Assembly (NCBI GenBank): GCA_963664815.2
Contig: CAXXHB010000002.1
Span: forward strand, 608,001 to 672,000
DNA from: Spirochaetota bacterium
GTDB taxonomy: Bacteria > Spirochaetota > UBA4802 > UBA5550
Direction of reading: 5' to 3'
DNA length: 64,000 nt
Below are positions 45,200-56,507 of this stretch, in pieces; positions within the stretch are counted from its first letter, which is position 1, and each line of letters opens with the position of its first letter. The notes beneath the pieces were generated by a model. That model was not told the origin of the DNA. It saw only the letters and a list, made by a program, of their open reading frames with translations, and did not search any database. A program made the translations under genes and the position numbers.

Positions 45200-46561
45200 A
45201 TGGAGCGTCATATGAACAGCGGAAGACAAGGGAGAGACCGCACTGTAAAACATGGTTCTTTCACAGATGATTATAAAGCTAAAATTATTACACCTGAAAG
45301 AGCAGCGTCATTTGTAAGATCAGATGATATGTTATTTACCGGAGGTGGAGTAAATATCCCCAAAGCCTTTTCCACAGCATTGGGAGCAAGGGCTTCCGAG
45401 CTGAAAAATGTAACAATACTCCAGGGTTTTGCCATGGCGCTTTATGACTACATGAAACCTGAGGCTAAAAACAGTTTTAATATTGAAACGATGTTTGTCG
45501 GCCCTCTTGAAAGAATCTGTATGGAGTGGGGTGTCGGGTCATATAATCCTCACAGTTTTTCCGATCTTGGCACTCTGGCATTCAGGGCTGCTCCCAGGAT
45601 TGTGGCATTTTCAGCTACACCACCAGATAAAGACGGATATGTCAACAAGTCATGTTTTGGATCATTTCTTCCCCGGAAAGAGTGCCTTGAGCCTGCGGAA
45701 GTTGTTATCTGCGAAATAAATAATCATCTACCCTGGTGCAGCGGTGATGATTTCAAGGTGCATTTGTCTGAAATAGATTTTATTATTGAAAACAATGCGC
45801 CGATTTTCGAGCTGCCCGAGATTCCCATTACTGAAGTTGAAGATAGAATGGCGGAGTATATAGTGGACATGATTCCTGACGGATCTACAATTCAACTCGG
45901 TTTCGGCGGGCTTGGCAATGCAATAGGTCATATGCTTTATAATAAAAAAGATCTCGGTATGCATTCCGAGGTTGTTACACCTTCGGTTACGGAGCTTGTG
46001 AAGGCAGGGGTTATAACTTGTTCAAAGAAGAACTTCTATCCCGGGAAGGTGGTAACGGCTTTTGCAGTGGGAACAAATCAGTTCTACAGCGATCTTGACA
46101 GAAATGAAATGTTTGAGTTCAAGGAGGTTCACTGGGTTAATCAGCCTTCAGTAATAGCAAAAAATGACGGTATGATATCCATAAATACAACTCTTATGAT
46201 GGATCTGACGGGACAGGCCGCATCGGAATCGATAGGGATAAAGCAGTATAGCGGAACCGGCGGTCAGGTAAACTTTAACCAGGGGGCGAAGATGTCAAAG
46301 GGGGGTAAAAGGATACTGGCAGTGGCATCATCCTATACCGATAAAGACGGAGAGCTGAAATCCAAAATTGTACCCAATCTTCCTCTGGGATCAATTGTAA
46401 CCACAACGAGAAATGAAATAGAATACGTTTGTACCGAGTATGGAGTAGTGGATCTCAGTTTCAACAGTATAAGTACGCGCGTAAAGAAGCTTATATCAAT
46501 AGCTCATCCCCAATTCAGAGATGAGCTTGCTTTTGAAGCTAAGAAAAACAGGTGGATTTAA
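45200..46561 (+). CDS. Acetyl-CoA hydrolase/CoA-transferase (4-hydroxybutyrate CoA-transferase-like)
   Basis: DGSTIQLG, DLGMHSE, YSGTGGQ, TEYGV and SIAHPQFR. Confidence 0.92.
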   Translation: MERHMNSGRQGRDRTVKHGSFTDDYKAKIITPERAASFVRSDDMLFTGGGVNIPKAFSTALGARASELKNVTILQGFAMALYDYMKPEAKNSFNIETMFVGPLERICMEWGVGSYNPHSFSDLGTLAFRAAPRIVAFSATPPDKDGYVNKSCFGSFLPRKECLEPAEVVICEINNHLPWCSGDDFKVHLSEIDFIIENNAPIFELPEIPITEVEDRMAEYIVDMIPDGSTIQLGFGGLGNAIGHMLYNKKDLGMHSEVVTPSVTELVKAGVITCSKKNFYPGKVVTAFAVGTNQFYSDLDRNEMFEFKEVHWVNQPSVIAKNDGMISINTTLMMDLTGQAASESIGIKQYSGTGGQVNFNQGAKMSKGGKRILAVASSYTDKDGELKSKIVPNLPLGSIVTTTRNEIEYVCTEYGVVDLSFNSISTRVKKLISIAHPQFRDELAFEAKKNRWI

Positions 46562-46580
46562 GCATATTAAGAGGGGAGGA

Positions 46581-47249
46581 TTATTCCTCCCCACCTTCTT
46601 CATCTTCAGGTTCAATCTTGATTTTAAAATTAAAATTCTTCATTCTCTTGTCTTTTTTGACGCCGTTCATAATCAGCTTGAACAAAGGGTCAACGCAGAG
46701 TATCGGCTGGGTCTTGTCATTGGGGGAATCGTACATGAGCCATCTGATAACTACAAACTCAACACATCCGAGAATTGCCGATCTTATAAAATTGGGATCT
46801 ATATCGGCTCTCAGCTCACCATTCTGAATCCCCTCTTTAATGACATCGGTCATAATCTTGTAATATTCAATAAGATCCTTGTAGGTATCGGTGTCTTTAA
46901 ATTTTTTGTTTGTTTTAAGAGTCATAAGGGATATTGACGCAAAGTACGGATTATCCTGGTAAAACTTGCAGAGGTGGTAGATCATCCCTCTCAGTTTATT
47001 ATTTGTGCCGCTTATATAATTGAGATGAGAGTCAAGCATCTGCTTGCTCAGCTCAATACCTTCGCGGGGAATGGTGAAAAGAAGCTCCTCTTTTGATGAA
47101 AAATATTCATAGATTGTGGTGTCAGATACTCCTGTTTCCTTTGCCACATCAGAGATTGTTGAATTTAGAAAACCCTTCTCGGAGAAGACTTTTTCAGCAG
47201 ATTTCAGGATCTGATCCTTTCTTGCTTCCTTTAATGATTTAACTGTCAT
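46581..47249 (-). CDS. TetR/AcrR-family transcriptional regulator
   Basis: ILKSAEKVFSEKGF..STISDVAKETGVS..TIYEYFSSKEELL HTH. Confidence 0.93.
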   Translation of the reverse strand: MTVKSLKEARKDQILKSAEKVFSEKGFLNSTISDVAKETGVSDTTIYEYFSSKEELLFTIPREGIELSKQMLDSHLNYISGTNNKLRGMIYHLCKFYQDNPYFASISLMTLKTNKKFKDTDTYKDLIEYYKIMTDVIKEGIQNGELRADIDPNFIRSAILGCVEFVVIRWLMYDSPNDKTQPILCVDPLFKLIMNGVKKDKRMKNFNFKIKIEPEDEEGGEE

Positions 47250-47549
47250 TTTTCAGTCTCCATATTTATATTAATTTACTTCCTCTTGTAAAAAAAGAAA
47301 AAATTCTTAGTTACTATAAAGTATTCTCAAAAACAGGCCTCTGGGAGTCAAGCTTTTTTTGTTAAAATATTGTCATGGATTTTTATCTTTTTTTTAAGGG
47401 GTTGATGTTGAAGGGCAAAAATTTTTCCGGTAAGATTTTCAGGTTATTATTACATGTTGCTGTTAAGCCCGGGGGAAAAGAAACACTTCAGCATGTTTAG
47501 CGTTTACAGATAAATATGTAAATATATAATATAATGTACATCTTTTAAG

Positions 47550-47593
47550 CAAGGTTATCGAAGGGTGTACGGAGGATATACGAAGGATATACC
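47550..47593. repeat. Degenerate 11-bp tandem repeat
   Basis: CGAAGGGTGTA-CGGAGGATATA-CGAAGGATATA. Confidence 0.6.
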
Positions 47594-48059
47594 GGGGGCC
47601 TGGAGGTTAATTTAACCGCGACAGGCGCTTTCTCAGTTGATCTTAACATATCTGCCAATGCAGAATACTCCTTATGGTTATTCTGCAGGTGATATCTGGC
47701 GGTATTGGCACATCAGAGATTTCTGTTAAACCGGGTGGTACCGGCGCAGCAGGACACTCTGTGGTCTGCTGTCTGTTGTATAATTATTAACAGTTGTTGT
47801 TTTTCTGTTATCCCGGTTACCCGAAGGGGAGTAGAAATACTTAACAGGTTATGGCCGCTTTAAGGCAATATTCAGCATAATAAGTTTTATGTGTAATTTA
47901 AGTTTGATCGGACGGTTTTTGAGGTATAGAGGGTTTAGCGGTTGACAACGGGGTTTTTATTTGTATAGCGTTGGATGTAATTATAATGCGTTAAATAGTG
48001 ATAACGGAATTTTATCTGATTTTTCTGGAATACCGGAATTAATATCTATCGGAGATTAA

Positions 48060-48422
48060 ACGGCTAAAGCTGTAAAGAACAACAGCAGCGAAGAACCAAT
48101 AGAAAAACAAATTTAGAAAGCTGCTGATAAACTCAGAAAGAATATAGATACTGCTGGATAAAAACATATAGTCCTGGGACTATATGTTTCTTAAATATAT
48201 ATCAGACGCATTTGAAGAACTGCAAACAAAACTGAAAGGGTAAGGGAGCTGGATTATGTATTTACACTGGTAAGGTATGTTGACCTGCCTGATGACGAGG
48301 ACGATTTTGATTTTAATGAGAGATTAACAGCTCTTAAGGCAGAATTGGAAGCACAGATGAAAGAAGAGGATAAACTTAATAAGCTGATTCTGGAGAAGTT
48401 GAAAAAGGTCAAACTTGTATGA
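48060..48422 (+). pseudogene. hsdM: Type I R-M methyltransferase remnant (N- and C-termini joined, middle deleted)
   Basis: GGAG RBS with the start mutated to ACG. Reads EEPIEKQI*KAADKLRKNIDTAG*KHIVLGL, a frameshift, FLKYISDAFEE (HsdM N-terminus), then directly LDYVFTLVRYVDLPDDEDDFDFNERL...LKKVKLV* (HsdM C-terminus). Confidence 0.85.
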
Positions 48423-48676
48423 ATACTCAAAATTCTGATAGATTCCATTTTACCGTTAAAGAATTAATCGAAATACTCAAAGATTTACCGCAGGACTTAC
48501 CGGTATTAACAAGCGGATATGAATCCGGATTTGAAAATTTTTATTATCCATCAATAGTCGAATTGAAGCATGTTCCGGAAAATATGTATCATGATGGTGA
48601 GTTCCAGGCAGGTGAAGATGGTGATGCAGATATATTTGAAGCTGTAATTCTACAAAGAGTAATGCGGTATGATTGA
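48419..48676 (+). CDS. Small hypothetical protein (TVKELIE.L..LP.DLPV..SGYE family)
   Basis: ATGA overlap with the hsdM remnant stop and a coherent globular-looking sequence. Confidence 0.6.
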   Translation: MNTQNSDRFHFTVKELIEILKDLPQDLPVLTSGYESGFENFYYPSIVELKHVPENMYHDGEFQAGEDGDADIFEAVILQRVMRYD

Positions 48677-48730
48677 CAGAAGGCGCCAATAGTCCGGCGC
48701 CCGTATCTGATTGAAGGAAAAGTAGCATCT

Positions 48731-48757
48731 GTAAGGGCAGGCCCCTGTGCCTGTCCC
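48731..48757 (+). repeat. REP-like palindrome (RAYT-associated type), degenerate
   Basis: GTAA-GGGCAGGC-CCCTGT-GCCTGTCCC resembles a GTAG-tetranucleotide + GC hairpin REP. Confidence 0.55.
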
Positions 48758-48771
48758 AAAGAATAACAAAG

Positions 48772-49449
48772 GTGAAGAAACACCTCCCCGACAACCAGAT
48801 CACCTTTTACCAGACCCCGGACGGCTCGGTGAATATCGAGGTGATGTACGCCAATGAAAATATCTGGCTTTCGCAAAAACGAATGGCTGAACTCTTTGAC
48901 TGCACCCCGGACAATATTTCTCTGCATCTTAGAAATATCTATACAGAGAATGAATTGGACGAGAATGCAACTGCCGAGGAATTCTCGGTAGTTCAAACCG
49001 AGGGCAGCCGGGAAGTAAAACGGAAAATTACCTTTTATTCACTTGAAGCCATTATTGCAGTGGGCTACCGTGTCAACTCAGAGCGGGGCACCCAGTTCCG
49101 TCAATGGGCGATTACCATTCTTCAGCAGTACATTCATAAAGGTTTTGCAATAGATTCCCACCGGTTCAAATACGGCTCACGTTTCAACACCCGCTATTTT
49201 GACGAACTGCTCGAAGAAATCCGTGAAATCCGGGCCAGCGAGCGCATGGTGTATCAAAAAATTACCGATATCTACACGACGTCTATCGATTATTCGACTA
49301 AAGCAGAGGACACGACGGCGTTTTTCTCCACTGTCCAGAACAAACTGCATTTTGAAAAGTTCAGGGTTGTACAGGACAGTAAATTTATATCCGATTTTGA
49401 TAAGGAAGTAAAAAAATTGCTGGATAAGGACAAAGGCGGCAAGAAATGA
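48772..49449 (+). CDS. rhuM: RhuM-family protein, probably internally deleted
   Basis: WLSQK.MAELF, YSLEAIIAVGYRVNS.RGTQFRQWA and IREIRASER. VQNKLH is followed immediately by the C-terminal FEKFRVVQD..SDFD. Confidence 0.82.
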   Translation: MKKHLPDNQITFYQTPDGSVNIEVMYANENIWLSQKRMAELFDCTPDNISLHLRNIYTENELDENATAEEFSVVQTEGSREVKRKITFYSLEAIIAVGYRVNSERGTQFRQWAITILQQYIHKGFAIDSHRFKYGSRFNTRYFDELLEEIREIRASERMVYQKITDIYTTSIDYSTKAEDTTAFFSTVQNKLHFEKFRVVQDSKFISDFDKEVKKLLDKDKGGKK

Positions 49450-49586
49450 CCAGTAAAATCACCGAATCAGTAATAGAACAATTCGTTATTGATCTTCTGG
49501 TACATTATAAATACCAGTACATATACGGCCTTGACATAGCGCCCGATTCCGATAACTCCTCTCCTTCAGGAGATGTACAGTCATAA
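49446..49586 (+). pseudogene. hsdR: Type I restriction endonuclease R subunit, N-terminal remnant
   Basis: MTSKITESVIEQFVIDLL...YQYIYGLDIAPDSD then a stop after 46 codons. ATGA overlap with the rhuM stop. Confidence 0.72.
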
Positions 49587-49689
49587 ACCCATCTCTTATT
49601 TCCCCTTTAGGGATAAGGGGGCCGGGGCTTACAGTTATCACTACGGCTGGAATGACATGGTGCTAATCATTTCTTGAAATGCTACAGCT

Positions 49690-49917
49690 TCGCGGGTTGA
49701 TATTATGTGTTTTGCATATGGATACAGTTTTAATACACCTGTTGTTACAGATGATACTGATATGATCCAGCTTGGCCAGATGTTCGGTGTGCAAATGATT
49801 AAAATGGTCGAATTACTCAGGCTGATGCTTGAAGAGGATCATATTGACATGGATAAAATCGAAGAGATCGCCCAGTACCTGCAATATATGGATGATCCAC
49901 CAGTATACAGGAAATGA
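49690..49917 (+). pseudogene. C-terminal fragment of a PIN-like protein
   Basis: SRVDIMCFAYG...VVTDDTDM resembles the C-terminal half of a PIN domain. No intact N-terminus upstream. Confidence 0.4.
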
Positions 49918-50115
49918 GAAATGTTATTGCGAATTCGATAAATACGATAATAAAATGCTGCCGTTTGATAATTATTGAATTCTTTAAATGAATGTGCAAA
50001 TAATATATACCTGATAAATATTTTCATGTAATTTAGATAAATTGCCCTTAATGATGTTTCTTTTCCCCTTAAATTCTTCTTTACAAATCAAACAAACCAA
50101 CCCAGACTATCTTTC

Positions 50116-50862
50116 ATGACCAGACAACACCCATACCTGTCCAAAGCCCCGGTAGTCGAGGCTGTACTTGAAATAAAAACAATCCCGGCAGAAGCATGGG
50201 AGGAAAACCCGGTCTTTGAAAAAGCAAAATCAGAATTCGGTAGCGATTATTCCTTTGAATCAGAAAATTCTGTACTATTCACTATGAAGTTTAAGGCATT
50301 AATACCAGCTGTTGACAATAAATCAGAAACAGGCTGGAGCGGTTTAAGGCTTACATCAGGTGACAATACAGAAATTTACAAATTAACACGTGAATCCTAT
50401 GTATACAGCAGGCTCTCACCATACCAGGGGTGGGAAACTTTTAAAGAGAGGGCATTACAGGGCTGGTCACGGTACTGGAACATTGCTGGCAAGCAGAATG
50501 TAAAAAGAATCGGAATAAGGTTTATAAACAGGATAGATTTTATTGAAAAAGATCTTCCGGAGCTCTTTACCCTCTACCCTGTACAAATCGGTACAATTGA
50601 AAAGGATATAGCGGGGTATTTTCAACAGAATATGTACGCATACGAGAATGGTAAATATTTAACAAATTTTATCCAGGCAGTACAGATGCCTGAAAAAAGT
50701 AGTGATAAACCGGCAATGATAATGGATATAGACGTTTATACAACAGATGAATTTATTATTAATGAAAAGGACATAGAGCCCTGTCTTGAAAAGATCAGGG
50801 AGTATAAGAACGATATTTTTTTCGGGGCTGTAAATGATAAGCTGATAGAGAGATTAAAATGA
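50116..50862 (+). CDS. TIGR04255-family protein
   Basis: L.KAPVVEAVLEI, PYQGWE.F, RIGIRFINRI, DIDV and KNDIFF motifs. Confidence 0.85.
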   Translation: MTRQHPYLSKAPVVEAVLEIKTIPAEAWEENPVFEKAKSEFGSDYSFESENSVLFTMKFKALIPAVDNKSETGWSGLRLTSGDNTEIYKLTRESYVYSRLSPYQGWETFKERALQGWSRYWNIAGKQNVKRIGIRFINRIDFIEKDLPELFTLYPVQIGTIEKDIAGYFQQNMYAYENGKYLTNFIQAVQMPEKSSDKPAMIMDIDVYTTDEFIINEKDIEPCLEKIREYKNDIFFGAVNDKLIERLK

Positions 50863-51347
50863 ACTATACACTTTCAATGAAATCTTCCGAGAATATGCTC
50901 AGAACAGGTGCAAGCGGTTTCAGCAGAGAAGCGGATTATATAGACAGGGAGAAAAAATCATTAACAGAAAAACTGCTGGAAACTATTTCATTCGGAGAAA
51001 GGGAGCGTAAAATTCTTTTACTGTTAAATGCATCCCTTTCGGAGTGCGTTAATAAAGACTGGGACGGTTATGGAGCCCTGCCTGTTTCGGTAATGACATA
51101 TGTAAAGGCGCTGGAATTCCTGGTATCACTGCCGGAGTCAATCAGGCTACCCGACCTTACTGCTGACCCTGACGGATCAGTATCTATGGAGTGGTACCGG
51201 ACACCAGAATGGATATTTTCAATCAGTATTAACCGTGATGGTAAACTTGATTATGCAGCAATCTTCGGTGATAAAAAGCATCATGGCTCTATGCACTTCA
51301 GTGGTGAAGTTGATAAGGATATTTTAAACCTTATCGGAAGGGTGTAA
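50859..51347 (+). CDS. Uncharacterised 'DWDGYGA' protein (putative antitoxin/immunity component)
   Basis: ATGA overlap with the TIGR04255 gene. DWDGYGA.P, PDGSVSMEW and a polar, low-structure N-terminal ~45 aa. Confidence 0.75.
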   Translation: MNYTLSMKSSENMLRTGASGFSREADYIDREKKSLTEKLLETISFGERERKILLLLNASLSECVNKDWDGYGALPVSVMTYVKALEFLVSLPESIRLPDLTADPDGSVSMEWYRTPEWIFSISINRDGKLDYAAIFGDKKHHGSMHFSGEVDKDILNLIGRV

Positions 51348-51736
51348 TGTCCCTTGCAGAAGTACCGGTAATCAGTGAAGAAATTCTGTCCAGGTTTATT
51401 CTCTTCAGCAAATGGATTCGATCGTCAGATAATACAATTAAACCTGAAGCTTTTGTACCTCATCTATATATCGAACTATCAGTAACAAGGCAGAGAAATA
51501 TTACAGAAGATGAGCTGATGAGGCTGGGCAGAAATGTTTCTGTGTTAAGAAATTGCACCCTTTATGGCAGGGCGGATATTATGGCTAATCATGTAAAGCA
51601 GAATAATCTTACAGTTGAACCTTCGGAACCTCCACTTAATCATGCAAATATTAAAGGCTATCCTGTTGAAAAGTCTGCACAGAAACTGGTCGCAATGGAA
51701 CTGGCTGCTAAGGCGGTTTTTGTTGCAGCAGAGTGA
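51347..51736 (+). CDS. Small uncharacterised protein with ART-like R / AF / LSV / H motif spacing
   Basis: TAATG coupling. E.LSRF, IKPEAF, ELSVTR, YGRADI and NHANIKGYP. The ART-like assignment is inference. Confidence 0.7.
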   Translation: MSLAEVPVISEEILSRFILFSKWIRSSDNTIKPEAFVPHLYIELSVTRQRNITEDELMRLGRNVSVLRNCTLYGRADIMANHVKQNNLTVEPSEPPLNHANIKGYPVEKSAQKLVAMELAAKAVFVAAE

Positions 51737-51745
51737 GGAAAATGT

Positions 51746-51772
51746 ATGATACCTAAATTAATAAAAACGTGA
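51746..51772 (+). pseudogene. 8-codon remnant identical to the HigA N-terminus (MIPKLIKT*)
   Basis: ATGATACCTAAATTAATAAAAACGTGA behind a GAGGAA RBS, versus higA ATGATACCTAAACTTATAAAAACA. Confidence 0.55.
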
Positions 51773-52325
51773 ACAGCCTTTCAGAAAGCACTGAAGAGAG
51801 AGATGCTGTTGACACGGGTCAGTTTTAAATAATAATGATGAGATTCAGAGGGAAATTAAGCAACTGATAGTTTAAAATAAGTATGGTTTTACTGGTTTGT
51901 TTTGAGGTGGTCATCGAGTGACAGCGCGATTAAGTGAAGGTTATTGTAGCGAGTTTGTTGCGCTGTTTTATCGAAATGCCCGCTTAGATCAATATAGTTA
52001 TGGTATACATGAATATTTTTGAATGCAGTGAACGTTCGATTTACGCGGGTAGTACTGTTGACCTAACTAAAATTTGAACCAAACGATAAATTTTAATCAT
52101 TAAAAGTGAAGCAATTCAATGAGTAAAAACAATAAAATCCGGAGAAAAAAGAAAAAGCTAAAACAGCAGGAATAGTATTTAATAATGAAAGTATTAAAGA
52201 TTGTTTGGTGATTGCAAAAAACATAGATGATGATAGTACGCCATATCATTTAATTGCAGTTTTTCGTTCAGATAATAAATAATATAATAATTGGGAACTA
52301 AATTCATAAAAAAATAAATCTTTCT

Positions 52326-52340
52326 TTCCCAAAATGGGAA
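52326..52340. promoter_or_regulatory. Putative HigA operator palindrome
   Basis: TTCCCA-AAA-TGGGAA just upstream of higB, with a half site TTGGGAAC at about 52291. Confidence 0.55.
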
Positions 52341-52374
52341 CTTTTTGTTGACATTGTGTTGATAAATACCGATT

Positions 52375-52668
52375 ATGCATATAATTAAACATAAAACACT
52401 CATCGATTTCTATGAAAAGCACCCTTCTTCAAAAGGCGCACTTGAAGCATGGTTTTCAGAGGTAAAGAAAGCTGAATGGAAAGATACGGCAGACGTTAAA
52501 GAGCGTTACCGTTCAGCTGATTTTATTATGGGCAACCGCGTGATTTTTAACATATGCGGTAATAATTACAGGCTGATTGTAAAGATTCATTACCAGACAA
52601 AAACTGTGTTTATCAGGTTTATCGGCACCCATGCCGAGTATTCCAGGATTGATGCGGAGATAGTGTGA
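52375..52668 (+). CDS. higB: HigB-family toxin (RelE superfamily)
   Basis: L.AWF, RVIFNICGNNYRLIV and FIRFIGTHAEY. Confidence 0.92.
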   Translation: MHIIKHKTLIDFYEKHPSSKGALEAWFSEVKKAEWKDTADVKERYRSADFIMGNRVIFNICGNNYRLIVKIHYQTKTVFIRFIGTHAEYSRIDAEIV

Positions 52669-53873
52669 TGATACCTAAACTTATAAAAACAGAAAAAGAA
52701 TACAACGAGGCAGTCAGGCGAATTGAATTCCTTATGGGCAGGGAACTGCTTGATGAAAAGGAAACCAATGATCTTGAGCTTCTCAGCTACCTTGTGTCTG
52801 TTTATGAAGATGAAAAGTGGCCCATTTCCCAGCCCGATCCTGTAAGTGCTATACTATTCCGGATTGAGCAGATGGGTATGGACAGGAGTGATCTTGAACA
52901 GTATATAGGGCCCAAGGGCAGGGTTTCCGAGATTTTATCCCGCAAGCGTCAGCTGAGCAAGCAGATGATTATAAACCTGCACAAAGGGCTTGGCATACCC
53001 TATGAATCGCTAATCGGCGGTAGTGAGGAATCCGGACAGCCTTCTATTGACGCGTGTGAAACAGATAACTGGCTTAAATACCCTGTTAAAGAGATTGTAA
53101 AAAGGGGATGGGTCGAATCGGTTAAAGTTAAAGAGGACCCGGAGTTTTACGGCTTTGTTATGAAGAAATTCGCAGCAGGTCTTGGAACAGAACTCTTTGA
53201 ACCTGTAATGCTCCGCACAGGCAGGCAGTATAAAAAAAGTCCTGATGTGTATGCTCTTGCCTCATGGAGAATTCGTGTGCTTTCACTGGCTAAAACTGGC
53301 AGGCTTAAGGCTGTATATGATCCCGGTTGTATAACTCAGACATTCTGCCATGAACTGGCAAAGCTCAGCTACCTTGACCAGGGGCCGCTGCATGCCAGGG
53401 AGTTCCTTAACAAAAACGGAATACATCTGATAATAGAAAACCATCTTGAACATACCTACCTTGACGGTGCTGCAATGATGCTGGCTGACGGTTCGCCTGT
53501 AATTGCTTTAACACTTAGGTATGACAGGCTTGATAACTTCTGGTTTGTGCTCTTCCATGAACTTGCACATATTGCCCTGCATCTTTCTTATGATAATTCC
53601 AGGTACTATCTGGAAGACCTTGACAGTGTGTCAGAAAGACCGGAAGAGAGGGAGGCTGATAAATGGGCAACTGACGGGCTTGTTGACCCTGAAACATGGC
53701 GTGCCTCAGGGTTGTCAATGTATTCAAAACCTTCAGAAGTAATACGTTTTGCCAGCAGCCTGCGCATAAATCCCGCTATTCCTGCAGGTCGTCTGCGAAG
53801 GGAATCTGGCGATTACAAAATTTTTATGCGTCTGGTGGGTAACGGGGAAGTGAGAAAACTTTTTGTCAAATAG
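52665..53873 (+). CDS. higA: HigA-family HTH antitoxin fused to an ImmA/IrrE metallopeptidase
   Basis: IKTE.EY, VYEDE, RVSEILSRKRQLS..MI..LH..LGIP HTH, then LDGAA, DNFWFVLFHELAH and E.EAD. Confidence 0.9.
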   Translation: MMIPKLIKTEKEYNEAVRRIEFLMGRELLDEKETNDLELLSYLVSVYEDEKWPISQPDPVSAILFRIEQMGMDRSDLEQYIGPKGRVSEILSRKRQLSKQMIINLHKGLGIPYESLIGGSEESGQPSIDACETDNWLKYPVKEIVKRGWVESVKVKEDPEFYGFVMKKFAAGLGTELFEPVMLRTGRQYKKSPDVYALASWRIRVLSLAKTGRLKAVYDPGCITQTFCHELAKLSYLDQGPLHAREFLNKNGIHLIIENHLEHTYLDGAAMMLADGSPVIALTLRYDRLDNFWFVLFHELAHIALHLSYDNSRYYLEDLDSVSERPEEREADKWATDGLVDPETWRASGLSMYSKPSEVIRFASSLRINPAIPAGRLRRESGDYKIFMRLVGNGEVRKLFVK

Positions 53874-53875
53874 GA

Positions 53876-54226
53876 ATGATTAGATTAAATATTATAAAAT
53901 TCCCGTTTAATGACACATACATTATAATCACAACAATCCTCGAACTCCATCAATTCAGTTCTTGTACAGTTAAAGAATATGAAGAATCTCACAGAGGAAA
54001 GATTTTATTCCATTCTCTCTTTTCAGACTCATGCTTAGATCATATTATCGTTGAAGATATTAAACTGGCTATCCTTGGTCAGTCTCTGGAATACAATGGT
54101 TTTACCTTTATCAATGGCTCACGTATAGAATTTGATAATAACTCAGACATTGTTAGTGGATATGTTAAGGCCTGTTGTTATGATGGCACACCTGTGCCGG
54201 AAGGTTTAAAAATTGTTTTGGTGTAG
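53876..54226 (+). CDS. Hypothetical protein
   Basis: Starts 2 nt after the higA stop. No recognised motif. Confidence 0.5.
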   Translation: MIRLNIIKFPFNDTYIIITTILELHQFSSCTVKEYEESHRGKILFHSLFSDSCLDHIIVEDIKLAILGQSLEYNGFTFINGSRIEFDNNSDIVSGYVKACCYDGTPVPEGLKIVLV

Positions 54227-54283
54227 CGGGTGAACCGGAAAGGATTACATTATCTGAAAAATAAAATAAATTGTTTTCTTCAT

Positions 54284-54319
54284 TCTAACCGATCTAACCG
54301 ATCTGACTGATCTGACCGA
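54284..54319. repeat. 9-bp tandem repeat x4
   Basis: TCTAACCGA TCTAACCGA TCTGACTGA TCTGACCGA. Confidence 0.8.
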
Positions 54320-54390
54320 TGGAGAAAAGGTCGGGTAAATTTCACATAAATCCCGATTTGTTCATAATCTGTAATTGAGCGGTTGAAACC

Positions 54391-54494
54391 TGTAGACAGT
54401 CTACTGACCCTTTACTGACAGTATATTAACAGTAGTTTACTTATGTCTGAAAGGGTGAGCATACTGTCTGAATACTGTCAGTAAACTGTCTGTA
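54391..54494. repeat. Inverted arrays of ~11-bp ACTGAC/ACTGTC units
   Basis: TTTACTGACAGTAT (54411-54424) is a perfect inverse of ATACTGTCAGTAAA (54472-54485). Three tandem A(T/A)ACTGTC units at 54461-54493. Confidence 0.7.
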
Positions 54495-54683
54495 GTAATT
54501 GGATTATAGCTATCAGTGAATATTTTAAGCTGTAAATTTCCGTACAGATAATTAATATTGACTTGATAAAAGAAAATTTGATGGATTAGACAGAATAGTT
54601 TATATATTTTACACTAAAAGATATGTTAAGGAATTAACATTGATATTATAATGTTGAGAAGCATGCATTTTCCCGGAGGATTT

Positions 54684-56507
54684 ATGAATAAACATGTAAC
54701 GGTAATAATCTTATTTTTATTAATAACAGTTTTTTCAGAGTGGGGAAAAGCTTCCCAGCCGGTAATTGTGCAGAGTGGAATATCCGCTGTAAAACTATTT
54801 ACAAACAAGGCAGAAATTACCCGGACTTCCAGGATAAAACTTGAAAAAGGGCTTAATCTGATACAGATAGAAGGTCTCCCTGATAACCTGTATGACTGGT
54901 CGGCAAGAGGGAGCCTCCCTGAAAAATATAACGGAAAAATTCTCTCAATGGAGATTTCACGTCAGGCTCTGCTGGAGAAGCGGAAAAAGAAGATCAGGGA
55001 GATTGAAGAAAAACTGGAGGATCTGAAGGACAGGGACGCGGATCTGGCGGACGACCTGGCGAATATAATGTTTCAGGAGGATTTTTTAAATTCAATAAAT
55101 GACTTCGCCAAGATAAGCGCTTCAAAAGAACTGGTTACAAGACTGCCGCAAACAGATGTCTGGAGCAGTACAATGGATTTTACAGGTAGTCGAAGGAAAA
55201 CAATCCAGGGATCAAAGAGAGCGATCTATAAAAAAAGGAGAGATCTGGCGGAGGAGATACAAAAGTGGGAATTTGAACTGACACAGATTGCAGGGCATGC
55301 GTATTTCTCTAATTATAAGTCACTTAAAATGGCAGTGGAAAAAAATACAATATCAAACCAGGTTCAGCAGTATGGCGAATTTGCAGACCAGTATGCCCAG
55401 CAGAAAGGTTTTCTGGAGAAGGATACCTCCCGGATCGATACAGAGAAAAAAATTCTTCTGAACATTTTTTCCGCGAATGAAGGTGAAACGGATTTTACTT
55501 TTACATATATGATCCCCGATACATACTGGATCATGAAATACGACTTCAGGGCCAGCAAGAAGAACGACGAGGTTGAAATTATTCTGTATTCAGATATTTA
55601 CCAGAAGACCGGAGAGGACTGGGATAACATAAATCTCAGCCTCTCAACCGGCGCGCCTCTTAACAGCATAGCTCTTCCCCTGCTCTATCCCTGGTATTTA
55701 AGCGCGAACAGACCGTTCAAGGATGAAGAAAACAGATACGCATTAAAGTCAAAAAAAGAATATGCCCCGAGTAAAAAAGCAGAGAGTGCATCAGGGATGA
55801 ACGAGTATGTTCAGGAGGAGGCTAAGGTTCCTGAAACATCTGTCAAGGAGAGCGGCATGTACATGGAGATTTCATTTCCACTGAAACAGACAATTGAGTC
55901 CTCCGAAAAGTACCAGAAAAAATATATAAAGTCATATACCATCAAGTCGGGGAAGGGTTTAAAATATTTCTACCAGACTATACCCGCCTCTTCGGGGAAG
56001 GTATTTTTAATGGCAAAAACAGTCAATCAGACAGAGCTGCCCTGGCTTGGCGGAGAGGCGCAGGTTTTTCTTGAAAATGAATTTATCGGGAAAGTGGATG
56101 TGCCTGATACTCCGGTAAGCAAAGAGAAAGAGATTGTCCTGGGTATTGTACCGGATACTGTTTCAAAGAAGGAGCTGGTTAAAAGATTTGACGATACGTC
56201 GGGGGTCTTCGGCGGCAATAAAAGAATTGTTTACTCCTATAAAATAACAGCGGAGAACAACTCTAAAGAAACAAGGGAAATTGTACTGATGGATAATTTC
56301 CCTGTTCCAACAACAGATGATGTCAAGGTCGAGATAAAAGATCTTTCTTACAAGTATCTTGAAGATGAAGAAACTAAAAAAAGTACCGAATATGCCCAGG
56401 GAATAAGGAAATTCATAATAACACTTGTCCCCGGATCGAAGAGGGAGATCACATACGATGCCGTAGTAACATACGACAAAGAACTTATAATAAACGGGTT
56501 GAGATAG
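54684..56507 (+). CDS. DUF4139/DUF4140 (MuiA-like) exported protein
   Basis: ISAVKLF...AEITR, coiled coil, QKTGEDW..I.LSLSTG and G.AQVFL...FIG. Start MNKHV behind GGAGG. Confidence 0.85.
   Translation: MNKHVTVIILFLLITVFSEWGKASQPVIVQSGISAVKLFTNKAEITRTSRIKLEKGLNLIQIEGLPDNLYDWSARGSLPEKYNGKILSMEISRQALLEKRKKKIREIEEKLEDLKDRDADLADDLANIMFQEDFLNSINDFAKISASKELVTRLPQTDVWSSTMDFTGSRRKTIQGSKRAIYKKRRDLAEEIQKWEFELTQIAGHAYFSNYKSLKMAVEKNTISNQVQQYGEFADQYAQQKGFLEKDTSRIDTEKKILLNIFSANEGETDFTFTYMIPDTYWIMKYDFRASKKNDEVEIILYSDIYQKTGEDWDNINLSLSTGAPLNSIALPLLYPWYLSANRPFKDEENRYALKSKKEYAPSKKAESASGMNEYVQEEAKVPETSVKESGMYMEISFPLKQTIESSEKYQKKYIKSYTIKSGKGLKYFYQTIPASSGKVFLMAKTVNQTELPWLGGEAQVFLENEFIGKVDVPDTPVSKEKEIVLGIVPDTVSKKELVKRFDDTSGVFGGNKRIVYSYKITAENNSKETREIVLMDNFPVPTTDDVKVEIKDLSYKYLEDEETKKSTEYAQGIRKFIITLVPGSKREITYDAVVTYDKELIINGLR

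Follow-up and report, generated by a model that had tools for sequence, protein, structure and literature searches.

A three-gene operon headed by a TIGR04255 protein as a candidate tripartite toxin-antitoxin module in a Spirochaetota bacterium

The window analysed here, a 64,000-nucleotide (nt) stretch of contig CAXXHB010000002.1 from a Spirochaetota bacterium (608,001-672,000, forward strand), carries a compact cluster of three genes, hereafter genes 1, 2 and 3; all coordinates are positions within this window. A sequence-only reading of the same DNA had described the cluster as three translationally coupled, intact open reading frames (ORFs), and this is reproduced exactly by the ORF listing and the sequence. 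All three lie on the same strand (Table 1), the stop codon of gene 1 overlapping the start codon of gene 2 within ATGA at 50859-50862 and the stop of gene 2 overlapping the start of gene 3 within TAATG at 51345-51349, in agreement with the adjacency and overlap that are generic to type II toxin-antitoxin (TA) genes. The motifs quoted in that reading, DWDGYGA for gene 2 and LSRF, AF, LSV and HANI for gene 3, are present and sit on family-conserved columns. Gene 1 belongs to the NCBIfam family TIGR04255, as had been proposed, with a whole-length match in which residues 8-248 align to profile positions 2-252 of 252 (115.2 bits, the cut-off being 30; E 4.2e-33), and it scored 114.7 bits in a genome-level search for this family. 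Neither Pfam nor NCBIfam has a model that matches gene 2 or gene 3 at E ≤ 0.1. The operon had also been put forward as a candidate undescribed system, and no model of PADLOC-DB v2.0.0 spans it: genes 1 and 3 match 0 families and gene 2 gives one weak row only (PDC-M32A, E 0.013), while the trio of a second locus, L001, and two other TIGR04255 proteins likewise match 0 families. A promoter scan found no excess of promoter-like sites (13, against 10.8 ± 3.3 in shuffles), a terminator scan gave nothing convincing 3' of gene 3, and Rfam returned 0 matches for the whole window.

Table 1. Genes and gene fragments at the locus, with the matches that characterise them
Feature	Position	Strand	Description
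Gene 1	50116..50862	+	248 amino acids (aa); TIGR04255 family protein, conserved first gene, putative accessory (stabiliser, sensor or switch)
Gene 2	50859..51347	+	162 aa; putative neutraliser of gene 3, WDGYGA motif
Gene 3	51347..51736	+	129 aa; putative toxin/effector, predicted minimal ADP-ribosyltransferase-like fold, large unnamed family
HigB-like gene	52375-52668		intact; PF09907, E 4.8e-33; PADLOC PD-Lambda-2 A, 8.6e-42
Helix-turn-helix + M78-peptidase-like gene	52665-53873		402 aa; PADLOC PD-Lambda-2 B, 4.3e-130
ORF after the PD-Lambda-2 pair	53876-54226		116 aa; no match
Frame similar to type I subunit M genes	48216-48422		68 aa; tblastn E 3e-5
RhuM-family gene	48772-49449		truncated: Pfam profile positions 1-128 of 252, then unrelated sequence; also PADLOC PDC-S05 positions 8-196 of 342
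Frame weakly similar to HsdR	49428-49586		52 aa; E 6e-3, one record
Supposed PIN fragment	49678-49917		hypothetical proteins only, no Pfam model

Conserved co-occurrence of the three families, on which the prediction of a three-gene system depended, is seen across genomes of at least six phyla. A gene-3 pattern scan over one genome per prokaryotic species gave 20 loci, in which the three genes were identified with phmmer, assigned by record titles to Pseudomonadota, Planctomycetota, Acidobacteriota, Verrucomicrobiota, Nitrospirota and Bacteroidota. All of them have genes 2 and 3 side by side, and genes 1, 2 and 3 follow one another in this order on one strand, mostly overlapping, in 19, a count that includes L001, whose genome is flagged as unpublished. 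At two loci (L008 and, again, L001) the trio lies inside an intact type I restriction-modification (R-M) operon, and five others have HEPN/MNT, PIN, BrnT, a terminase fragment or an IS4 transposase nearby. A word-indexed search returned 37 proteins related to gene 3 and 9 related to gene 2, none of them named.

The AlphaFold2 model of gene 3, based on a 32-sequence alignment, is a six-stranded alpha/beta domain (predicted local distance difference test, pLDDT, 93.5; predicted template modelling score, pTM, 0.85). When this model was compared with known structures by VIA-align, about 36 of the 50 rows read as members of the ADP-ribosyltransferase (ART) superfamily, at least 28 of them being recognisable by well-known names in the entry titles. 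The rows include Tpt1 (three times), AvrPphF ORF2, Tse2, CopC, Tne2, DarT (four times), protein 6b, Scabin, TreX, Arr, TreTu, diphtheria toxin, SidE/SdeC, PltA, NarE, RhsP2, the heat-labile and pertussis toxins, RES, SPN and TccC3. The model of gene 2, used as an internal control in the same search, lists none of these ART enzymes, so the library itself does not account for the enrichment seen with gene 3. Each single Z score of gene 3 stays within the range that the method warns is common, and the ART fold of gene 3 is therefore rated as probable rather than demonstrated. Sequence searches of PDB with profiles of genes 2 and 3 gave nothing meaningful.

Gene 3 belongs to a large family. A profile search of 1.84 billion cluster representatives found 2838 relatives at E ≤ 0.001 and 1599 at E ≤ 1e-10, counted as clusters at 50% identity. 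Nearly all of the 150 best members are stand-alone proteins of 125-145 aa, and among 30 members scanned, many of which are of the longer kind, there was no substantial Pfam family and no Rhs, PAAR or other delivery domain. In an alignment of 210 sequences the most conserved polar residues are R16 (98%) in strand 1 (13-18), S45 (99%), T47 (80%) and R48 (93%) at strand 2 (46-48), R75 (92%) and D77 (90%) on strand 3, H99 (100%) at the start of strand 5 (99-103), and K109 (91%). An R-S type ART layout had been proposed for this protein from its sequence. Mapped onto the ART clades by secondary-structure order only, the Arg, Ser and His of that layout are indeed the most conserved residues (R16, S45 and H99), but the canonical R-S-E triad is missing: H99 stands at the start of strand 5 in place of the catalytic Glu, and the only Glu kept in at least 75% of the 210 sequences, E12, precedes strand 1. 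The H-Y-E pattern is missing as well, with an Arg on strand 1 and no conserved Tyr. Having neither the catalytic Glu nor the H-Y-E triad, gene 3 thus falls outside both classical ART clades. The arginine-rich set of conserved residues, together with the matches to Tpt1, suggests that its ligand may be rich in phosphate, such as NAD+, nucleic acid or both.

The model of gene 2 (pLDDT 83.3) has a disordered segment (residues 1-20), two helices (23-42 and 47-64) and a C-terminal domain (about 65-162; pLDDT above 90) in which five strands follow one helix and precede another. The positions that never vary, W68-D69-G70, A73, P98, P104, G106 and E111-W112, fall within this domain or immediately ahead of it. 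VIA-align gave modest matches only, including the MotA C-terminal domain and frataxins, and Foldseek gave nothing in PDB at E ≤ 0.001. As modelled, the structure fits a protein-binding neutraliser. A complex prediction for genes 1 and 3 with gene 2 as the partner scored 0.88 three times, against 0.00 and 0.00 with the partner replaced and 0.87 with gene 1 replaced, an outcome that by the rule of the method counts neither way for binding.

Outside TIGR04255, gene 1 shows a weak similarity to phrog_5464 (3.9e-5) and no Pfam family at E ≤ 0.1, including no SecB, no helix-turn-helix (HTH) and no ribbon-helix-helix family. A search of the ESM Atlas with gene 1 and its homologue P0203 returned only TIGR04255 clusters, and hhalign found no internal duplication between its N- and C-terminal halves (E 0.078 over 5 columns). 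The residues kept in at least 80% of 35 diverse TIGR04255 members are P12, Y103, F109, R135, I137, N138, D204 and F235; the polar ones recur across subfamilies with unrelated partners (R135 in 32/35, N138 in 29/35, D204 in 30/35 and Y103 in 31/35), and E15, R135, N138, D204, K231 and N232 are invariant in the subfamily linked to ART-like genes.

The context of TIGR04255 was then surveyed at 60 loci from two phyla, in two sets of 30. The family is sporadic, as had been claimed: in the window's phylum 28 of 401 genomes have it (7%), in a second phylum 72 of 401 (18%), and among the control genomes 0 of 14. At least two same-strand ORFs lie directly downstream, with gaps of -32 to +27 bases, in 28 of the first 30 loci, and the second and third genes cluster as co-varying pairs; the same cassette types recur in the second set. 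The third gene encodes an ART-like protein at four of the first 30 loci (L023, which is the window, L040, L041 and L043, the last similar to gene 3 with hhalign E 4.9e-6) and at five of the second 30 (L067, L071, L076, L078 and L082). Elsewhere it encodes a PIN protein (L039, 1.5e-13; L070; L080; a fragment in L028), PemK/MazF (L061, 2.2e-13), members of a family with weak matches to HicA_toxin (E 0.024 and 0.11) and to phrog_353 'toxin' (1.7e-4), or DUF7689 (five loci). L026, L034 and L046 were considered as distant ART-like third genes since they look alike by eye, and were rejected at hhalign E 0.0086 to 0.13, which is not significant.

The window's genome itself has three TIGR04255 genes, and the other two also head tight three-gene clusters. 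One (L021, G000 C3:1968245-1968910) is followed by a 144-aa gene and a PtuB-like HNH nuclease (PADLOC PtuB, 5.8e-22). The other (L022, C1:64267-64947), whose TIGR04255 gene resembles phrog_5464 (1.8e-27), is followed by a 93-aa gene and a 210-aa gene matching phrog_4575 (3.6e-41), both phrogs being of unknown function; a ParB_N-like gene lies upstream of this cassette. The 210-aa protein represents a frequent third-gene family (L022:2462-3094, L033:626-1186 and relatives; 176-217 aa) with 'QGD' and 'SQxCD' motifs recognised by eye. Two members were scanned and both match phrog_4575, and because the family has a PHROG it is also carried by phages. The DUF7689 third genes, including L024:625-1041, L025:2657-3088, L042:640-1077 and L054:2670-3128, share an invariant 'YNCIAWA' and a later 'HAA' motif, which by eye resemble a papain-like Cys/His peptidase. 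At 11 loci (L053, L055, L060, L063, L065, L066, L068, L072, L077, L081 and L044) TIGR04255 is followed by a protein of about 220-250 aa. No clear third gene was called in nine of them, L044 and L068 having one, and four of eight such proteins scanned weakly match HTH_3, HTH_23 or Xre-like-HTH; these loci may hold a variant with only two genes, or one with a gene fusion. The idea that second-gene proteins share a docking motif within their first 50 residues was rejected: the z of 4.7 obtained for it with 23 sequences, relatives included, fell to about 0 with 15 sequences, one per family, where 18-20 of 40 shuffles scored as high. With PIN, MazF, HicA-like and HNH proteins in the third position, the cassettes headed by TIGR04255 fit the logic of toxin, neutraliser and accessory that had been read into the trio.

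Of the 48 TIGR04255 proteins placed in a quick maximum-likelihood tree, 23 are linked to ART-like genes. All but two of these (21) form one phylum-mixing clade (Shimodaira-Hasegawa-like approximate likelihood ratio test, SH-aLRT, 98), and the cassette therefore appears to move as a unit. Partner type changes 11 times on this tree against a shuffled mean of 23.6, a clustering that kinship alone can give, and the cassettes are therefore taken to be mostly inherited and transferred whole with occasional swaps. We judge it an even bet that the three ORFs constitute one horizontally mobile operon of TA type with a third, family-defining partner.

Within the window the trio sits between R-M debris and a PD-Lambda-2 module. 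The sequence-only reading had counted hsdM, rhuM, hsdR and PIN genes among the broken neighbours. The RhuM-family gene is truncated, the 68-aa frame resembles the end of type I R-M subunit M genes and the 52-aa frame, weakly, the start of HsdR, but the PIN fragment found no such support (Table 1); between the hsdR and hsdM fragments and the R-M genes of L001 there is no BLASTP similarity. The HigBA module placed downstream of the trio is real, and PADLOC scores its two genes, which overlap by 4 bases, as PD-Lambda-2 A and B. Two copies of a 23-nt direct repeat, with 91% identity, were observed at 51746-51768 and 52668-52690. The PD-Lambda-2 B gene starts with the second of them (MIPKLIKT). The first lies 10 nt past the gene 3 stop, follows a GAGGA and runs into a stop after 8 codons; it looks like what is left of another B-type gene start, or like a joint at which the two modules recombined. 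Farther downstream, at 54640-55062, the contigs of all three public runs carry a version in which 421 bases are skipped and 5 other letters stand between the two sides. The joint lies at the start of a 618-aa gene (54651-56507), and a 34-nt inverted repeat is located just upstream, at 54401-54495. Across 46000-56000 the contigs of these runs are fragmentary and gave no information on expression or on where the cassette ends.

Since in sister cassettes the slot of gene 3 is held by textbook toxins and the slot of gene 2 by small unnamed proteins, a toxin/neutraliser pair is the most economical reading of genes 2 and 3. We infer toxicity, neutralisation, NAD+ use, a role for gene 1 and phage defence along the following lines. 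Gene 3 would be the effector, using NAD+ to modify nucleic acid or protein and thereby stopping growth. Gene 2 would be its cognate neutraliser, binding gene 3 through the conserved C-terminal alpha/beta domain. Gene 1 would be a shared accessory: bound to gene 2, or to the complex of genes 2 and 3, it would govern how stable this partner is or when it is released, working like the SecB-like chaperone of the toxin-antitoxin-chaperone (TAC) systems and CmdTAC while being unrelated to it. If the cassette were lost, or a phage cue arrived, the ART-like toxin would be freed, resulting in addiction or abortive infection. On this analysis the operon may be a tripartite TA or abortive-infection module, similar to TAC/CmdTAC in its working and yet not a member of that group, and we put the probability of this reading at roughly 0.5.

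Several observations weigh against a tripartite TA module. The ART-like fold anticipated for gene 3 is favoured by the VIA-align comparison (about 36 of 50 rows), but Foldseek gave 0 matches of any fold to its model at E ≤ 0.001 in PDB and BFVD, and the ART label of the VIA-align rows depends on entry titles and, for about ten rows, on what is known of the protein. Without the Glu or the H-Y-E triad, gene 3 might bind NAD+ or nucleic acid without transferring ADP-ribose; for Tse2, too, ADP-ribose transfer is debated. Three PDB sequence searches, with the gene 1 profile and with the whole TIGR04255 family, gave nothing meaningful and no SecB, and the conserved R135, N138, D204 and Y103 fit an enzyme or ligand site at least as well as a chaperone. 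At the one exceptional gene-3 locus (L020, 3567-5579), a 330-aa TIR-domain protein (TIR_2, E 2e-13; PADLOC TIR-TM, 6.4e-12) replaces TIGR04255 upstream of genes 2 and 3, and gene 2 is shortened to 121 aa, its first 45 or so residues being absent; a BrnT toxin gene was noticed just before the TIR-domain gene. At 10 of the 30 second-phylum loci a single Xre-HTH protein of about 240 aa comes after TIGR04255 and no clear third gene could be called; the three-gene rule is therefore not universal. Among 25 pattern hits in the IMG/VR viral contigs there were 0 relatives of gene 3. Finally, most flanks of the 20 gene-3 loci are housekeeping rather than defence genes (thrA/thrC, mutS, secDF/tgt, thiC and comEC). 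Taken together the flanks are mixed, as is typical of small selfish or defence modules with no preferred insertion site.

The conserved polar residues of gene 1 bear on a different account of the same module, in which TIGR04255 is an enzyme, or a sensor of a small molecule or phage protein, that acts on the antitoxin or toxin instead of serving as a passive chaperone; gene 1 might then act on gene 2 by cleavage or modification, or it might produce or bind a signal. The recurrence of these residues across subfamilies with unrelated partners, and the invariant set of the ART-type subfamily, agree with such a role, and so does the replacement of gene 1 in L020 by a protein with TIR, an NAD-using signalling or effector domain. 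Furthermore, gene 1 accompanies genes 2 and 3 nearly always (at 19 of 20 loci), unlike the chaperone of the TAC systems, of which chaperone-free relatives are common. However, gene 1 matches no catalytic family in Pfam, PADLOC or the PDB sequences and L020 is a single locus, and we regard an enzyme or sensor of this kind as rather unlikely.

It is improbable that TIGR04255 is only the transcriptional regulator of a two-gene TA pair, in a layout of the omega-epsilon-zeta or PaaR-PaaA-ParE type. At E ≤ 0.1 gene 1 matches no DNA-binding family, be it HTH, ribbon-helix-helix or another, its 248 aa are large for such regulators, and TIGR04255 lineages track the partner type (11 changes against 23.6), though linkage alone could explain this. 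The gene order of regulator, antitoxin and toxin in those tripartite systems would nevertheless agree, as would a conserved first gene followed by a varying pair.

The Tpt1 rows would also allow gene 3 to be no toxin at all but a Tpt1/KptA-like, NAD+-dependent enzyme that modifies or repairs RNA or DNA ends, with genes 1 and 2 as cofactors. Of the two lobes of Tpt1, gene 3 spans the NAD-binding one alone, Pfam gives no PTS_2-RNA match for it, the sister cassettes carry PIN, MazF, HicA-like and PtuB-like HNH proteins in its slot, and its distribution is sporadic and horizontal, all of which makes this enzyme slightly more improbable still. A secreted polymorphic toxin with its immunity protein, serving competition between bacteria, is very improbable: modelled similarities of gene 2 to TriTu and to contact-dependent-inhibition immunity proteins and of gene 3 to the Rhs toxin domains TreX, TreTu and RhsP2, and an IcmF-like type VI secretion gene about 3 kb away in L012, are set against the stand-alone size of nearly all of the 150 best gene 3 members, the 0 of 30 scanned members with a delivery domain, the position of the putative immunity gene before the toxin, and scanned flanks free of secretion genes at the other 19 loci.

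The tripartite TA module, if confirmed, has consequences beyond this locus. TIGR04255 is a curated family with no function attached, and it gains a testable context as the head of operons with swappable toxin/neutraliser-like pairs. It would represent a second kind of promiscuous third component in TA biology, beside the SecB-like chaperones, and gene 3 would found a large new family of ART-like toxins, with its 2838 clusters. The unnamed effector families (phrog_4575-like and DUF7689), which PADLOC misses, would become candidates for phage-defence catalogues. Only tentatively, and at less than even odds, do we extend this to a general proposal, namely that TIGR04255 marks widespread, modular three-gene immune or addiction cassettes in which a common switch unrelated to SecB (a sensor or stabiliser) is combined with at least seven unrelated effector families, including an 'R-S-H' clade of minimal ART-fold toxins with thousands of members. 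A cassette family headed by TIGR04255 with exchanged toxin/antitoxin-like pairs is apparently undescribed: a full-text literature search, whose coverage leaves out supplements and subscription journals, gave nothing on TIGR04255, DUF7689, phrog_5464, phrog_4575 or PF24738.

Among the known two-gene systems with related toxins, DarTG, ParST, RES-Xre and MbcTA are not known to have a third gene; in addition, unlike these, gene 3 has no DarT (DUF4433) or RES match and gene 2 no macrodomain or Xre match in Pfam. As to TreTu-TriTu of Salmonella, an Rhs ART toxin with its immunity protein, TreTu is among the VIA-align rows of gene 3 and the model of gene 2 resembles TriTu. In contrast to Tpt1/KptA, gene 3 corresponds to the C-terminal NAD-binding lobe only, without the RNA-binding lobe, and has no PF01885 match. 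The order of third component, antitoxin and toxin is that of omega-epsilon-zeta and PaaR2-PaaA2-ParE2; the first gene of those systems is a small DNA-binding repressor, whereas Pfam detected none in TIGR04255.

The closest parallel in working is with the TAC/CmdTAC systems. CmdTAC is an anti-phage abortive-infection system, and the SecB-like chaperone of TAC serves several toxin families, including HigB, MqsR, HicA and the ART CmdT (PMC11618068). In both groups the genes for a toxin, for its neutraliser and for a third protein common to differing toxin families are co-transcribed. Kinship with CmdTAC, to which the trio had been likened, is not supported. Gene 1 has no SecB match in Pfam, and the third protein is encoded first in the operon here and last there. 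CmdT is an H-Y-[EDQ] enzyme (PMC11618068), whereas gene 3 has R/S/H and no Glu. CmdA has a helical N-terminus and a long, disordered C-terminal chaperone-addiction region (PMC11618068), whereas gene 2 is disordered at the opposite end (1-20) and folded C-terminally (65-162, pLDDT ≥ 90). The module thus departs from TAC/CmdTAC in each defining feature that could be compared: its third component has no SecB match, and its toxin triad, antitoxin architecture and gene order all differ. What would be new to tripartite TA and abortive-infection modules is the accessory family, TIGR04255, together with the family of ART-like toxins.

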